Shown here: in pieces, positions 45,881-52,973 of the stretch | Position numbering within the stretch: the stretch's first letter is position 1 | Layout of the letters: every line of letters begins with the position of its first letter | Virus record (IMG/VR): IMGVR_UViG_3300020577_002562 | Location: 123,210 to 187,209 of that record | Length of the DNA stretch: 64,000 nucleotides | Strand: one strand, 5' to 3' | From: a virus | Lineage: Duplodnaviria > Caudoviricetes | Notes under the pieces: model-generated | Databases searched by the model: none | What the model saw: only the letters and a program-made list of their open reading frames with translations | Told to the model about the DNA's origin: nothing | Position numbers and translations under genes: made by a program

Positions 45881-45957
<77 letters not shown>

Positions 45958-45969
45958 GTGTACTCTTGA

Positions 45970-46521
45970 TTAGTTACTTGAGTCAGTCGAATCGGTAGAT
46001 TCCCTAGAGTCTGCGCTTCCTAGTCTAAACGGCGAACTCCAGTTCAAGGCGGGCGCAATTGGTGCCCCCATACTTGCAGCATGTTTGTGTTTGTACCGAG
46101 TCTCCAATTCCTCAAGTGACTCTTCGCCTTGCTTCAACGTCATGCTGACCACTGACTGAGAGCATCCAATGATCTCAGCAATCTCACGATGCAACATCAT
46201 GCGACCGTGAAACATGACCATTGATCTGCTCTTGGTTGGCACTGGCATTTTCTTTGCGGGAACAGGCGCGTCCGACTGCTTGTCTTCTACTGGCTGGATC
46301 GCCCACACAGGCGAAATCACAGTGTTGTAACTCATGATGTAGACGATACCCGCGTCGTGGAACGCTTTGACGTACTTGGCTAACGCTCCACTATGGGAAA
46401 TCAATGACGAGTCTGCGTAGACGAACCGCACAATGTCTATCATGGCTTTGGGGCCATCATACAAAGCCGCTATCACTTTGGCAGCAATGTCACACGGTCG
46501 GTGGTAGTATGTTTTACCCAT
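45970..46521 (-). CDS. HTH-domain DNA-binding protein
   Basis: REIAEIIGCSQSVVS; architecture similar to 52964-53512. Confidence 0.65.
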   Translation of the reverse strand: MGKTYYHRPCDIAAKVIAALYDGPKAMIDIVRFVYADSSLISHSGALAKYVKAFHDAGIVYIMSYNTVISPVWAIQPVEDKQSDAPVPAKKMPVPTKSRSMVMFHGRMMLHREIAEIIGCSQSVVSMTLKQGEESLEELETRYKHKHAASMGAPIAPALNWSSPFRLGSADSRESTDSTDSSN

Positions 46522-47493: not shown

Positions 47494-47794
47494 TAAGGGT
47501 GTCCCTGCTCTTGCCACTTGAAGAAGTGGTTTTTGACACAGATGGCTCCGATCTATGCGACCCAACAAGCTTGTTAACTTGCTGAGTCTATGCAATCATC
47601 GCCACGGCAGGGACCACCTTAGTCAGCACATCACTTCATTATCCGCTAGTGCTGACCAAGGGACTATGGATCAGGCCGCGAGGGCCTGATCGAATTGCGC
47701 GTCGTTGGCAGTTCTCTCTTTGCTTGGTTTGCGGCTCCGCTTGCCGGATCGTCGTTCTTACTCTCGGTAACCCTGTCGAAACTATTTCAGCCCC
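47494..47794 (-). ncRNA. ssrA: two-piece tmRNA, coding piece (5' end 47794; tag ANDAQFDQALAA at 47709-47671; 3' end uncertain)
   Basis: GGGGCTGAAATAGTTTCGAC start; resume context AACT|GCC; stop within GATCAGGCC/GGCCTGATC hairpin. Confidence 0.92.
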
Positions 47795-48285
47795 ATCACA
47801 AGTGCACGAACGTACCCCGTTGGAATCTGATTCGTCTTTGGTTGGACGACTCTATGAACTTCCCACCCTTTTCTTATAGCTGATCGCTCTTTCTTCGCAT
47901 CTAGTTGCTTGATAGTGGCATCAAAATGATAAGCACCATCGAACTCGATAAGAATCCTACGATCATCTATCTTCAGAGCCAGATCAAACACGTATTTTCC
48001 AACGGGAAGTTCAAATTTATGTCTTACCTTGTATTTTGTCAACCAGGCCTGAAGCTTTCCGTATTTGCTAGCTTCTCTCTTTCTAAGCAAAGCTGCTACG
48101 TGTTTTACTTCATGCCCGTAAGTTGCTCCAGAATAGTGCTGTCCACATTTACGTGAACAGAAATATGGTTTTGGCAGTTTCTTACCTGCTTTCACCCATT
48201 TGCTATTTTGGTGCGTTACTTCGGCTAACTTTTTCGTGAAGTTAGCCTTGCACAAACTACAAGTTAGTTTTACCGTCTGTATCAT
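47782..48285 (-). CDS. putative homing endonuclease (Zn-ribbon + Vsr/DUF559-like nuclease) in tmRNA intervening segment
   Basis: CSLC...FCSRKC; FDLAL...IEFDGAYH...GWEVHRV; AT-rich; ATG 7 nt after CCA. Confidence 0.8.
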   Translation of the reverse strand: MIQTVKLTCSLCKANFTKKLAEVTHQNSKWVKAGKKLPKPYFCSRKCGQHYSGATYGHEVKHVAALLRKREASKYGKLQAWLTKYKVRHKFELPVGKYVFDLALKIDDRRILIEFDGAYHFDATIKQLDAKKERSAIRKGWEVHRVVQPKTNQIPTGYVRALVMGLK

Positions 48286-48292
48286 ACACTTA

Positions 48293-48510
48293 TGGTGGAG
48301 CTGGCGGGTACTGCCCCCGCGTCCAGAACCCCTCAAGCTCGATCTCTCAAGCTCTTTACGAGCCCTCACGATCATTACTACCACGACGTTCCATACTCAC
48401 AACCTTTCGATTGCCGGTACGGGTGCGGTATCGCGTACCGACCTGACCACTTGCGGAATACAGCTTTACCCTATTGACCGTCACTTGGGCAGCTGCTTGA
48501 CGGTCAAGAT
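48293..48510 (-). ncRNA. ssrA: two-piece tmRNA, acceptor piece (CCA end at 48293; 5' end uncertain)
   Basis: GGACGCGGGGGCAGTACCCGCCAGCTCCACCA; pairs with GGGGCTG giving G3-U70. Confidence 0.9.
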
Positions 48511-48893
48511 CAGCAACACCAGCAATGTGGGCCACGACCAGTGCTACTCAACGCTTCTACTTTACAGTGTTCGGTTGTTCAGTGCGCTACTCAACGTCAT
48601 CAGACCAAGACCTGACTAGCCAATGAACCCATAGCCACCAGCGCCACAATCAAGAGGGCGGCGATAAGCGATAGACCCCATTCCGCCATCTTCTTCATGT
48701 CAGGCATAGTGCTCTCCAGATCAATGATCGTACTGACTGCGCTTGTCGTTCAGCTTTGCTCGTTGCGTGCGCTTACCATTATCCACCCGGCGGTTTACCG
48801 AACGCTCACGTTTAGCCTCATTCGTACCGCCGAAGCTTGCGTACAGTGTAGCCCACTGTTCTCGGCGTCGTTGTCGCTTTGTGTCTGCCATAG

Positions 48894-50120
48894 TCAACCC
48901 TTCACACAGACTACTTGCTTGAGCGTGTGAACCACGTCCACAAGGTCAGCTTGAGCTGCCATCACCATGTCGATGTCCTTGTAAGCCATCGGTGTCTCAT
49001 CCAACACCGAATCGTCTTTGCGGCACTCTACGCCGACGGTGGCGGCAACGTGATCCTCAACCGTAAACCTCTTCTTCGCTTCGTTGCGTCCCATCACACG
49101 ACCAGCACCGTGACTGCACGAACAGAAGGAGTCCGGATTGCCCTTACCACGCACGAGGTAGGACTTGGCACCCATGGAACCTGGGATGATGCCAAGCTGA
49201 TCGGCTTGTGCTGATACAGCCCCCTTGCGTGTCAAGTAAACGTCCTGGCCGAAATGACGCTCAATCGACACATAGTTGTGGTGGCAGTTCACTGCCGATT
49301 CCATTAACAGGAACTCTTTCGATACTGACTCAACCAATGCCTGTACCGTACTCATCATCATGAGCTCCCGGTTCTTACGAGCAAATGCTTGCGCCCAGAG
49401 AACTGCCATGCAGTAGTGGTCGAAATGCTTGGAGCCTTCAGACAGGTACGCCAAGTTCTTGTCGCTGAGTTGGTACTTGCCGACGATGTCCATTTCACGT
49501 TTGGCCTTCTCGATGAAGAAGGTGCCAATGCGGTTACCGATGCCGCGCGAGCCTGAATGCAGCATCAACCATACGTACTGATCTTCATCGATGCAGACCT
49601 CAATGAAGTGATTGCCAGTGCCGAGAGTACCTGCATGCAATGGTGCTCTACGTGCAGCACGCTCCAACTCGGGGTACAGTTGGACCAGAGCCTCCAGTTC
49701 TGTCAACTCGTCTTTGAGATACTGCAAGACCATCGGATCGGGCAGATCCCATGCACCACAGTCACCTGGGCCACCTTCATGTGAGCGACCATGCGGAACA
49801 CGTCGTTCAATGTTGGTGCGTAGCTCATGCAAATTATCCGGCAAGTCACTTGCTCTAAGCGAGGTCTGTTGTGCCATCATGCCACAACCAATGTCCACCC
49901 CAACAGCGGCTGGAATCAGTGCTTTGATGGTCGGCACAACGGTACCGATGGTGGTGCCTGCGCCCCAATGAACGTCTGGCATCACCGCGACATGACTGTG
50001 AACAAACGGTAATGCTGCCAGGTTCCTCAACTGCGTGACCGCAGCGTCTTCAACTGGCACTCCCTTCGTCCACATCTTGATCGGTACTGGGCTGCCTTGC
50101 AACTCGATATAGCTCACCAT
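48894..50120 (-). CDS. rtcB: RtcB RNA ligase
   Basis: MPDVHWG, VGVDIGCG, GTLGTGNHF, HSGSRG, HHNY, SCSHGAGR, YKDID, VCVKG. Confidence 0.97.
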   Translation of the reverse strand: MVSYIELQGSPVPIKMWTKGVPVEDAAVTQLRNLAALPFVHSHVAVMPDVHWGAGTTIGTVVPTIKALIPAAVGVDIGCGMMAQQTSLRASDLPDNLHELRTNIERRVPHGRSHEGGPGDCGAWDLPDPMVLQYLKDELTELEALVQLYPELERAARRAPLHAGTLGTGNHFIEVCIDEDQYVWLMLHSGSRGIGNRIGTFFIEKAKREMDIVGKYQLSDKNLAYLSEGSKHFDHYCMAVLWAQAFARKNRELMMMSTVQALVESVSKEFLLMESAVNCHHNYVSIERHFGQDVYLTRKGAVSAQADQLGIIPGSMGAKSYLVRGKGNPDSFCSCSHGAGRVMGRNEAKKRFTVEDHVAATVGVECRKDDSVLDETPMAYKDIDMVMAAQADLVDVVHTLKQVVCVKG

Positions 50121-50497
50121 GTTTCCTTGGCAGGACTTGGCGTCTTCGGCGTCCCATACTTGGTTATCAGCTTTTCCAGTTGCTTCCGTTCGCTCTGTTC
50201 GCGCCTCTTCTTTGTGGCTTCCCGCTCACGCTTGTCGCGTTCACGCGTCTTTTGTTCTCTGCTCAAACGCGCAGTGCGTTCCTGCTCAGTTTCCGGCCTG
50301 TACCAGAAGAAGATTTGGTCGTCAGCATCGAACTTGATCTTCGAGTAGTCAACTCCTTCTGGAAGTCTATCCACAAGATTTTCGATGCTATCACCATCGT
50401 ACAGAGGGACGCTGTCCTGAACAAGTTTGGGTTGAGCCGACTTGGTGTTCTTAGTTGAGGGCGCGGTCTTGGTGGTCTTGGTGGTCTTAGCGTTCAT
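50114..50497 (-). CDS. hypothetical protein with KTTK-rich N-terminus
   Basis: ORF between tRNA and rtcB. Confidence 0.6.
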   Translation of the reverse strand: MNAKTTKTTKTAPSTKNTKSAQPKLVQDSVPLYDGDSIENLVDRLPEGVDYSKIKFDADDQIFFWYRPETEQERTARLSREQKTRERDKREREATKKRREQSERKQLEKLITKYGTPKTPSPAKETW

Positions 50498-50539
50498 GTT
50501 GATCTACCGTTGAATGTTGTGGGTGGTGAAGATGGTTAA

Positions 50540-50617
50540 TGGTCCGCCGGAAGGGATTCGAACCCCCGACCTGCTGCTTAGAAGGCAGCTGCTCTAATCC
50601 TACTGAGCTACCGGCGG
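50540..50617 (-). tRNA. tRNA-Arg(TCT)
   Basis: full cloverleaf, loop CTTCTAA, CCA. Confidence 0.95.
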
Positions 50618-50856
50618 TTGGTTGGCTGGTGGTTCTAAAGCACTCGAATTTGAACTCAAGTCGTCTTTGAAGTAATAGAGAGTGACTCCTGGCGGAAGCG
50701 CATCTAACCACAGCACTCTTCCGAACTTAGGGTCATAACCAGTACGGCTCGCCTGTGTACTTCCGTACCTGAGTACGGTGTACTTCCCACGCAAACAACA
50801 TAGCATCTTCTACGAACGGATCGTAGTCTATGACTGCTGAAGCATCCGTTTCGGAG

Positions 50857-51387
50857 TCAATAGAGGTTTTCACTGAACAGTTCACGTTCATCTCCTGGGC
50901 AACGATGCAATATCTGACCAGCGGCTCTAGCTACGGTCAAGGCTTCGTAACGGTTCATCCACTTGCCGTGCTGGTCCACGAAACCATCTTCAGCTTTCGC
51001 CCAGTCTGCTAGGTTTCTCACGCCAAACTCTAAAAGCTGCTGCATGATTGAATCGTAGTGTCGCGGGCCGCACAAGATGTGGCCTCGCTTACTACGGATA
51101 GCGGCACATACCACCCGACGTTGACTGGCATCCGGCTGTACTGTCTCTTCCTGCTCTACGGCCTTTACTGGTGGAGTAGCATGCCAGGTTCGTGTAGCAG
51201 AACATGAGCCGCCATGACTGTTATATGGGTCGAAGCGAAGTCCATCAGGTCGTTCCAACCAGACCACTGCCTGGTGGTTAACCTGTGGATAGTTGGCATC
51301 AGTGATGCCAGTAACGGTACCGGGACCAACTGAACTTCTAGACACAGGGTCACCAATGTTCAGCGTACACGGATCAAGCTCAGACAT
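50857..51387 (-). CDS. hypothetical two-domain phage protein
   Basis: AGGAG SD; RVVCAA...GPRH...GF.DQ.G.WM.R.EA motif. Confidence 0.65.
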   Translation of the reverse strand: MSELDPCTLNIGDPVSRSSVGPGTVTGITDANYPQVNHQAVVWLERPDGLRFDPYNSHGGSCSATRTWHATPPVKAVEQEETVQPDASQRRVVCAAIRSKRGHILCGPRHYDSIMQQLLEFGVRNLADWAKAEDGFVDQHGKWMNRYEALTVARAAGQILHRCPGDERELFSENLY

Positions 51388-51796
51388 GTTCAACTCCTGT
51401 CCAGGGATCATCGTATACTGGTGGTCGAAGCCGCATCACTTCAAACCAAGCGTGTTCGTACATGGGCTGCTCAAAGTAGCGTCCGATTCTGATCACGATG
51501 GGGGTGTGTAAGCTGTTTATGCTGTGTGTCCCGACTACACGGAGTCGGGGGCTCAATATACCTCTACTCAATGACCATCTGTTCGCTTCCATCAGATCCT
51601 TGGCGAAAATCAGTATGACCGACTCGTTAGCTTGGAGCACGTCAAGCAGCGGACGAGTTTCTTTACAGTACCTAGCAACCGGCTTCAATTCGGAGAACAG
51701 CTTACGTGTCTCCTCAGAACACTGAAATCGAGGTGGCATCTGGAATCCTTGTTTGCTCATCGGCTTGATGGACAAAGGGGTGGCACACGAGGCCAC
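51380..51796 (-). CDS. hypothetical protein (start probably internal)
   Basis: operon packing. Confidence 0.5.
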   Translation of the reverse strand: MASCATPLSIKPMSKQGFQMPPRFQCSEETRKLFSELKPVARYCKETRPLLDVLQANESVILIFAKDLMEANRWSLSRGILSPRLRVVGTHSINSLHTPIVIRIGRYFEQPMYEHAWFEVMRLRPPVYDDPWTGVEHV

Positions 51797-51800
51797 CCCT
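51776..51800 (-). terminator. terminator-like hairpin after HU gene
   Basis: AGGGGTGGC/GCCACCCCT. Confidence 0.6.
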
Positions 51801-51822
51801 GTAGTTGCTAAGACTATCCAGA

Positions 51823-52281
51823 TCAGCAGTCGCCGTTCGACGCCCTCTTCAGCTTGGCGAGCACTCGGATGCGAGCTTTGATGTAAGACGGGCGAGTGTA
51901 CGCGGGCCGTCCCTTGGACTTCATCATCTCTCCGGTGCTTGGGTTGCGGACTTCAGTGCCCTTCTTGATAGCCGGAAACTTCTTGGCTGGCATCTTCTTG
52001 GTCACGACTTTGAACATACCCGGCCACGAAAACTCGCCAGCGCCGCCGGGCATGACTGATGCCATCATGGCACGCTCGAAGGTAGCCATGACTGCCTTCA
52101 CTTGGCGTGGTTCCAGTTCGTTCTTCTCAGCGATCTTTGCCATCAGCTCATTCTTGGTGAACTTCTTGCGAAGAGGCTTGATTGCATCGACGGTTTTTGC
52201 ACGACGAGCCCTCGTCGTCTTGGCCTTGCTCTTGGTGGTCTTGCTGGTCTTCGTGGTCTTTGCCTTGGCGGTACGTGCCAT
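51823..52281 (-). CDS. HU/IHF-family DNA-binding protein with basic N-terminal tail
   Basis: TKNELMAKIAEK; F.WPGMFKV; RNPSTGE; AGGA SD before ATG 52281. Confidence 0.88.
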   Translation of the reverse strand: MARTAKAKTTKTSKTTKSKAKTTRARRAKTVDAIKPLRKKFTKNELMAKIAEKNELEPRQVKAVMATFERAMMASVMPGGAGEFSWPGMFKVVTKKMPAKKFPAIKKGTEVRNPSTGEMMKSKGRPAYTRPSYIKARIRVLAKLKRASNGDC

Positions 52282-52312
52282 GATGGTTCCTACTGTGAAA
52301 GGTGGGTGAATC

Positions 52313-52369
52313 TGGTGCCGGCTATCCGACTCGAACGGATGACCTACCGGCGGTTTCAATGAAATTGGT
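52313..52369 (-). tRNA. 3' half of split tRNA-like gene
   Basis: CCGGT-AGGTC-ATCCG TTCGAGT CGGAT-AGCCGGC-ACCA preceded by 17-nt extension. Confidence 0.8.
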
Positions 52370-52452
52370 GCTGGGGGTGAGATTCGAACTCACGTGAGGT
52401 TGCCCTGCCGGCTTACAAAACCGGTGCAATCGACCAACTATGCGACCCCAGC
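52366..52452 (-). tRNA. nested tRNA-Thr(TGT) with long variable arm
   Basis: GCTGGGG/CCCCAGC acceptor, loop TTTGTAA, AGG-GCAA-CCT variable arm, CCA. Confidence 0.85.
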
Positions 52453-52862
52453 TAGTAAGATTTACCTTCTGCATAGCGCACACGACGCGAATGGCGTCCG
52501 TAGCCACGGTTTCGTCCCTTATAGGTATCAGTTTGCGCGTCACAGTTATGACAGATCAGCCGTAGATTTGTCAATTTCCAATCGTATGGGTTTCCATCCA
52601 TATGATCCATAACAAGTGGTACTGGGTACCCACGCCATGTAGTTCTTTTGCAGAGTTTGCATCTATGACCGCGCGTGAAAATTAGGTATGTTTTGATTAG
52701 TTTGACTGTCATACCCTTTGGAAGTTTACCAAGCTTCCTGATCTTAGCGAACGCCAACTTACGTTGATATTGCTGCTGACAATTATTGCTGCAATACTTT
52801 TGGGTTGCCGTTTCCCGGTACAGCTCGATGCTGTCTCTACAATTCAAACAACGTACTTTCAT
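52452..52862 (-). CDS. HNH homing endonuclease
   Basis: CLNC..YCSNNC; CKLC; DHMDGN....LTNLRLICHNC. Confidence 0.9.
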   Translation of the reverse strand: MKVRCLNCRDSIELYRETATQKYCSNNCQQQYQRKLAFAKIRKLGKLPKGMTVKLIKTYLIFTRGHRCKLCKRTTWRGYPVPLVMDHMDGNPYDWKLTNLRLICHNCDAQTDTYKGRNRGYGRHSRRVRYAEGKSY

Positions 52863-52922
52863 GTAGTACCTTTCTAGTCTACATGAAATTAGCGTACCAC
52901 TGTTAATGCGCGTTACAGGTTT

Positions 52923-52973
52923 ACCAATTTCATTGAAACTGCCGATTGCTCTACCAGACTGAGCTAAGCCGGC
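52923..52973 (-). tRNA. 5' half of split tRNA-like gene
   Basis: GCCGGCT-TA-GCTCAGTCTGGTAGAGC-A-ATCGG followed by extension complementary to the 3' half. Confidence 0.8.

Follow-up and report, generated by a model that had tools for sequence, protein, structure and literature searches.

HNH enzymes (F-TflI, F-TflII and F-TflIV) are encoded in the tRNA region of phage T5. SegB of phage T4 is a free-standing homing endonuclease in a tRNA gene cluster; it cuts the tRNA region of phages lacking SegB and thereby drives its own inheritance (PMC2330249). Group I introns in the T-loop of transfer-messenger RNA (tmRNA) carry homing endonuclease genes, and a 2025 tmRNA database paper reports inside intervening sequences just a tRNA-Ala gene and a repeat element (PMC11915505). 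Two-piece (permuted) tmRNAs are known from marine and aquatic phages (PMC9004378; Rfam RF04321). Here we describe two nuclease open reading frames (ORFs) packed against stable-RNA genes in a 64,000-nucleotide (nt) stretch of phage DNA (the window), the final 64 kb of the 187-kb IMG/VR virus record IMGVR_UViG_3300020577_002562. The first lies in the spacer of a permuted tmRNA gene and the second, an HNH endonuclease ORF, abuts a tRNA-Thr(UGU) gene (Table 1). The best explanation, to which we give a probability of about 0.68, is that both are selfish genes of the homing-endonuclease type, placed in or against phage stable-RNA genes, and that their overlaps with these genes are not a conserved design.

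As with T4 segB, a small nuclease gene is wedged between or against tRNA genes and is sporadic among related phages (PMC2330249). SegB is a GIY-YIG enzyme, whereas one of the window genes lies in the discarded spacer of a permuted tmRNA, encodes a DUF559/Vsr-like fold and has its start and stop in an RNA helix; cleavage by SegB is established, whereas that by either window nuclease is putative. The nuclease gene sits within a tmRNA gene and is removed from the mature RNA, as are the homing endonucleases of tmRNA introns (PMC11915505), but there is no intron or splicing, and the spacer is removed by the ordinary end-processing of the two-piece tmRNA. No description of a nuclease gene in a tmRNA spacer was found in the papers searched. 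The gene shares with other phage two-piece tmRNAs the acceptor piece, spacer and coding piece, the G3:U70 pair, the encoded CCA and a tag ending in LAA; it differs from them in a protein-coding spacer of 498 nt (tens of nucleotides elsewhere) and in deviant T- and D-loops. In animal mitochondria, incomplete or overlapping stop codons at tRNA boundaries (tRNA punctuation) are completed by polyadenylation. As there, the upstream message would end, once the RNA is excised, at or within its stop codon. No comparable repair of the stop is known for the window phage, whose messages, once cut, would be truly non-stop.

A nuclease gene in the spacer of a permuted tmRNA gene

The Rfam model of permuted tmRNA (RF04321) matches 48344–47671 on the minus strand with 97.8 bits (gathering cut-off 47, model positions 1–213), and in the alignment a single large insertion splits the acceptor piece from the coding piece. 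ARAGORN did not call a permuted tmRNA at 48344–47671 (minus strand), probably because of the long spacer. The ORF starts at ATG 48285, 8 nt past the CCA of the tmRNA, and its stop codon, TAG 47784–47782, lies within the coding piece. Upstream in-frame starts (gene-caller lengths of 197, 192 and 185 amino acids) were rejected, as the residues that they would add across the acceptor piece lack conservation. Pfam assigns the protein to DUF559 (25.8 bits, cut-off 20.6), with MTES_1575 below its cut-off. Across the 41 aligned sequences of the spacer nuclease D101, E114 and H120 are invariant and D116 is nearly so, and family alignments show conserved cysteines in the N-terminal half. The AlphaFold model based on the 41-sequence alignment has a predicted local distance difference test score of 93. 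None of the PDB matches from Foldseek reached E ≤ 0.001; the weak ones are to Bax1, the R2 restriction-like endonuclease domain, Vsr and Hjc, all of the restriction-endonuclease-like fold, and serve as support for the Pfam DUF559 assignment only.

Relatives of the nuclease came from protein searches, word-based and exhaustive profile. The word-based search gave three close homologues (52–60% identity), all inside RF04321 permuted-tmRNA matches and with differing flanking genes; a fifth spacer-borne lineage (P0052, locus L111) emerged from the exhaustive profile search. All four close relatives (P0002, P0003, P0004 and P0052; 44–61% identity) lie in spacers of permuted tmRNA genes, so that the comparison covers five spacer-borne lineages (the window, L008, L011, L013 and L111), all from metagenomes. 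More distant homologues also adjoin tmRNA genes. The P0053 gene stops 34 nt before a permuted tmRNA whose spacer is just a few nucleotides long, and the P0054 gene is downstream of a one-piece tmRNA; for P0054 and L115–L119 (five of the six next-best viral loci), about 30–70 nt separate the CCA of a one-piece tmRNA from the start of the nuclease behind it. A scan of viral contigs with a four-sequence nuclease alignment and a scan of JGI metagenome contigs gave no relatives, and a single-protein viral scan gave just two short matches of 25 residues, which were not used.

The nuclease homologue is absent at 14 phage tmRNA loci. Ten of these share the GGCAAGCGGAGCC block of the window, nine of the ten being confirmed permuted tmRNAs; the measured spacers of nuclease-less permuted tmRNAs are about 4 to 134 nt long and close as hairpins. 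Because it always stands beside one conserved gene and is absent from many alleles, the spacer nuclease behaves like a free-standing homing endonuclease. The tmRNA gene itself is the likely target of this DUF559/Vsr-like clade. The clade adjoins phage tmRNA genes, typically starting just past the CCA. What follows the CCA in a permuted gene is the intervening segment, and the ORF fills it from 8 nt past the CCA to the RNase P site. An origin of the permuted gene by tandem tmRNA–nuclease–tmRNA duplication is disfavoured. Insertion into an already permuted gene is simpler, since this tmRNA type occurs widely with short spacers, and some of the short-spacer relatives match the betaproteobacterial model.

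Two of the more distant loci have unusual tmRNA genes. At L112 (2501–3300) a gap of 34 nt parts the nuclease gene from a downstream permuted tmRNA, whose spacer is just a few nucleotides long; this tmRNA has no encoded CCA and is also matched by the betaproteobacterial tmRNA model. At L114 (1640–2250) a one-piece phage tmRNA is seemingly interrupted by about 230 nt in the T-loop, with the CCACCA end resuming near 2243 and a DUF559-type nuclease gene directly after it. The interruption could be a group I intron.

Stop codons at the RNase P sites

A first description of the window, made from its letters and translated ORFs and called here the sequence-only reading, had placed the stop codons of both ORFs 3′ of the RNase P site, and this is correct. 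The spacer ORF ends GTG AT/G GGG CTG AAA TAG (the slash marks the cut before G1), so that its last 13 nt, including the stop, lie inside the mature coding piece as read from the sequence and RF04321. The HNH ORF ends TCT TAC TA/G, and its final G, 52452, is G1 of tRNA-Thr, on whose limits (52452–52366) ARAGORN and Rfam agree. If the RNA is cut at G1, both messages lose their stop, and untagged full-length nuclease would come only from unprocessed RNA. The sequence-only reading went further and saw in this a possible built-in self-limitation, in which selection put the stops past the RNase P site so that the product of the non-stop messages would be tagged by tmRNA and degraded, limiting a toxic nuclease. 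As a deduction the loss of the stop holds, and it is plausible in the window phage; the built-in part fails on conservation in the relatives.

Only one of the five spacer-borne lineages, that of the window, has the stop inside the tmRNA. In L008, L011, L013 and L111 the junction is TGA, a single T and then G1 (TTA TGA T/GGG), with the ORF ending in SLVL or, in L111, in LESL; as the TGA sits one base upstream of G1, the excised spacer keeps the stop. The ordinary stop of the spacer nuclease is a UGA at −4 to −2 from G1. The window also carries TGAT directly before G1, out of frame (UGA 47798–47796, U 47795). The stretch from the conserved TACGTT to G1 measures 14 nt in the window and 19 nt in its relatives. 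As the ORF end is 5 nt shorter, its frame misses the TGAT and stays open as far as a TAG at tmRNA positions 11–13. This TAG depends solely on the A at position 12 (47783), a G-to-A change within a GG that is invariant in the 13 other alleles compared. L111, the outgroup by protein identity (44%), shares the non-overlapping state, which indicates that the overlap in the window tmRNA is a derived slip of one lineage. In the window lineage the shortened end would have misframed the UGAU and carried the ORF 13 nt into the tmRNA, to a UAG made by the G-to-A change; RNase P cleavage would then remove the stop from processed transcripts, a loss that would be tolerated.

That both ORFs encode nucleases, as the sequence-only reading had proposed, agrees with the DUF559 match above cut-off for the first and with an HNH family for the second. 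The Pfam HNH_3 match to the latter is weak; the family alignment has invariant H87, N99 and four cysteines. The C-terminus RYAEGKSY is conserved in the family, so the window ORF ends naturally. The tRNA-Thr it meets has a 7-bp acceptor stem (GCTGGGG/CCCCAGC) with G 52452 as its first base. In a census of 80 viral loci of the HNH family, not all of which are independent, 58 have a tRNA on the same strand no more than 150 nt from the gene, and in 28 tRNA-Thr(UGU) adjoins it (12 upstream, 16 downstream). Where a tRNA follows closely, the distance from the stop to the tRNA ranges from −24 to +11 nt and beyond. The family is tied to phage tRNA clusters, above all to tRNA-Thr(UGU), and the shared G would be a matter of simple abutment.

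Some features of the HNH junctions favour selection for non-stop messages. The TA/G junction with tRNA-Thr recurs in L019, L029 and L033, a related HNH ORF in L008 likewise ends inside a tRNA-like 3′ half, and the HNH genes overlap a tRNA at 16 of 48 junctions, the remaining ORFs of the comparison loci at 6 of 55. Equally close HNH relatives, however, have a TAA or TAG 1–11 nt upstream of tRNA-Thr, and the −10 and −21 junction classes stop at TAG triplets that are standard in tRNAs (e.g., U8-A9-G10), which accounts for them without selection. Ends within 11 nt of a tRNA are found at 17 of 48 HNH junctions and at 20 of 55 junctions of other ORFs; in phage tRNA clusters, ORFs and tRNAs often overlap or lie a short gap apart, and in these counts, whose loci are not all independent, the HNH overlap is enriched, not exceptional. 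A tree of HNH cores with 81 tips requires at least 13 changes of the overlap state, barely under the mean of 15.6 for shuffled labels (13 or fewer in 5 of 200 shuffles), and we read the state as labile. With the overlap conserved in neither family, four of five spacer-borne lineages retaining the stop in the excised spacer, the window state derived through a frame change and a G-to-A change supplying the TAG, and the T- and D-loops of the window tmRNA deviant, selection for non-stop decay is very unlikely to explain the stops. The junctions compared here indicate that stop overlap is an unstable by-product of packing and no conserved self-limiting device. Self-destruction by stop loss is testable, and the comparison gives no support for it as a general design.

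Closing helix, mobility and partnership

Whole precursors were folded for the window, L008, L011 and L013; for all five spacer-borne lineages, L111 included, duplexes were folded and pairing probabilities computed. The predicted closing helix extends the acceptor stem past a one-base bulge and pairs CA-UAAG...AUG with the last codons of the ORF; in the relatives it also takes in the UG of the stop codon. Since the spacer ends must pair to continue the acceptor stem, the start and the last codons fall within this helix, predicted at 10–16 bp in all five lineages. The closing duplex (−15 to −19 kcal/mol) is stronger than each of 423–447 internal windows; that of the window phage (−19.2 kcal/mol) beats all 423, and its AUG has a probability of being unpaired of 0.00–0.05. 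The start codon is nearly all paired in the window, L008, L011 and L013 (0.00–0.06), whereas the TTG start of L111 is paired only in part (0.04, 0.29 and 0.91). Both strands of the helix differ between the window and its relatives, with pairing retained, and ORF-less tmRNA spacers close likewise, as hairpins. The stop thus lies at the RNase P site because the ORF is fitted into the loop and stem of a spacer hairpin. No Shine-Dalgarno sequence is present in the 8–12 nt between CCA and start in the spacer-borne lineages, compared with GGAGG before the start of the free-standing relative in L115. The start-codon helix is a candidate for a more general brake on expression, and loss of the stop would at most add to these other brakes, the missing Shine-Dalgarno sequence and the helix-buried start codon.

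The same predictions bear on a view in which the helix is a kinetic gate. Translation of the nuclease would be confined to nascent RNA; when the 3′ end of the spacer has been transcribed and ribosomes have cleared it, the helix would form, bury the AUG and present the acceptor stem for processing. Each transcript would yield a few proteins at most, tmRNA maturation would follow translation, and a stop by G1 would serve this coupling and not non-stop decay. The MS2 maturation gene, controlled through delayed RNA folding, is an analogue. A helix predicted in all five lineages, a start nearly fully paired in four of them and the lack of a Shine-Dalgarno sequence fit such a gate, as does the closing of ORF-less spacers as hairpins. 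The gate is, however, a prediction from folding; the helix may serve tmRNA processing alone, and the start of L111 is only partly paired, so we regard the gate as a tentative possibility. A broader proposal joins these elements: the tmRNA spacer would be a splicing-free home for homing endonuclease genes, in which the helix buries the start and brings the stop to the RNase P site, nuclease synthesis is brief and limited to nascent or unprocessed RNA, and slipped stops send non-stop messages to trans-translation, possibly by the phage's own tmRNA. Taken whole, this proposal is unlikely. The tight packing offers a simple system for the competition of translation, RNA folding and RNase P processing on one transcript.

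The reading of both ORFs as selfish genes rests on two properties found in each family. Both have a nuclease domain with conserved catalytic residues, and both stand by a conserved gene with sporadic presence, the DUF559/Vsr-like nuclease by tmRNA genes that lack it at 14 loci and the HNH nuclease by tRNAs in the proportion given above. Several points weigh against this reading. The nuclease homologues are old (44–61% identity) and the homologue searches found no near-identical copy in unrelated phages, so any recent mobility of the nuclease is conjectural. A tree of the mature tmRNA parts, built to separate single from repeated gain of the ORF, has branch supports too low to bear on repeated gain; two of its acceptor pieces were badly extracted. 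The HNH genes overlap tRNAs at a rate (33%) above that of other ORFs in the same loci (11%), and some selection for overlap may therefore act. The constant linkage to tmRNA could also reflect a functional partnership, in which the nuclease is not selfish but a working partner of the phage tmRNA (e.g., in RNA processing, defence or counter-defence). The linkage is indeed kept in three arrangements across distant phages. The nuclease-less tmRNA loci, however, include close tmRNA relatives, the fold and family are those of DNA endonucleases, and sporadic presence by a conserved gene is the usual signature of free-standing homing endonucleases; a partnership of this kind is highly improbable. If the genes are selfish, such nuclease genes could reside within an essential RNA gene and need neither intron nor intein, using a stretch discarded by the tRNA-processing enzymes, and the DUF559/Vsr-like clade could help to explain the movement of tmRNA genes between phages.

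The window tmRNA and neighbouring RNA genes

Table 1. Positions of the nuclease ORFs, RNA genes and predicted helix strands in the window
Feature	Position	Strand	Basis
tmRNA acceptor piece (T-arm, 3′ acceptor strand CAGCUCC, A73, encoded CCA ending 48293)	48293..48344	-	RF04321 alignment, sequence, 13-allele comparison
Intervening segment, 498 nt, filled almost wholly by the nuclease ORF	47795..48292	-	RF04321 alignment, sequence
tmRNA coding piece, G1 (47794) to tag stop codon	47671..47794	-	RF04321 alignment, allele comparison
Nuclease ORF, 167 amino acids; N-terminal Cys-rich zinc-ribbon-like part and DUF559/Vsr-like PD-(D/E)xK domain	47782..48285	-	Pfam, alignments, AlphaFold, Foldseek
Closing helix, 5′ strand CAUAAGUGUAUGA, including last two CCA bases and AUG start	48282..48294	-	Minimum free energy and duplex folds (predicted)
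Closing helix, 3′ strand UCGUGCACUUGUG, encoding the ORF end, followed by AU and G1	47797..47809	-	Minimum free energy and duplex folds (predicted)
HNH endonuclease ORF, 136 amino acids, C-terminus ...YAEGKSY, stop TAG 52454–52452	52452..52862	-	Sequence, Pfam, family alignment
tRNA-Thr(UGU), 87 nt, long variable arm, G1 = 52452	52366..52452	-	ARAGORN, Rfam
Split tRNA-like gene (5′ half 52973–52940, 3′ half 52352–52313)	52313..52973	-	Sequence

The acceptor stem of the window tmRNA is of the alanine type (GGGGCUG with CAGCUCC, including G3:U70, then ACCA). The coding piece, read from the sequence, opens with GGGGCUGAAAUAGUUUCGAC at 47794 and probably runs further 3′ than 47671; the tag coding sequence (47709–47671) reads ANDAQFDQALAA followed by a stop codon and has a hydrophobic end. 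The T-loop, GGCAGUA (48315–48309), is atypical, all 13 other alleles compared having UUC(G/A)Annn, and the D-loop analogue is AG where the same 13 have GG. The canonical T-loop (UUCRAnn) and D-loop GG are thus present in all 13 compared alleles and absent from the window tmRNA, which is changed at both partners of the elbow contact. The double change could be compensation or decay. With both loops abnormal, the activity of the window tmRNA, and hence its ability to tag, appears uncertain.

A scan for promoters and terminators gave fewer sites than shuffled controls, and the lone promoter-like site falls within the spacer nuclease ORF. Megablast of 11 kb of the window against deposited phages gave a sole match of 50 nt, to Acidovorax phage ACP17, and the phage thus has no close cultured relative. 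A gene for the RNA ligase RtcB (48894..50120, minus strand; Pfam RtcB, E = 5e-122) separates the two-piece tmRNA from the split tRNA region. RtcB was found in two of five records of phages with ORF-less tmRNAs (L109 and L110, both permuted), a count that is uninformative on synteny.

The HNH ORF and tRNA-Thr form a cassette that replaces the anticodon arm of a split tRNA-like gene. It is closed by a perfect 17-bp inverted repeat (52939–52923 and 52369–52353) that includes the ACCA of tRNA-Thr, and ARAGORN calls a tRNA body on the joined halves. L008 (2098–2650, plus strand), whose spacer nuclease is the closest to that of the window, also carries these outer halves, but there tRNA-Thr comes directly after the 5′ half and is followed by the HNH ORF and the 3′ half; there is a compensatory change in the T-stem (ATCCG/CGGAT compared with ATCTG/CAGAT). 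Its HNH ORF, uncalled by the gene caller, enters the 3′ half by about 40 nt and stops at a TAG in the T-arm. The long variable arm of the window tRNA-Thr is unusual for a Thr tRNA; the tRNA-Thr of L033 is 86 nt long and follows a gene of the same HNH family with the same TA/G junction. Another tight junction in the window is that of ORF 46521–45970 (minus strand), which stops 12 nt short of tRNA-Pro (region 45957–45970).

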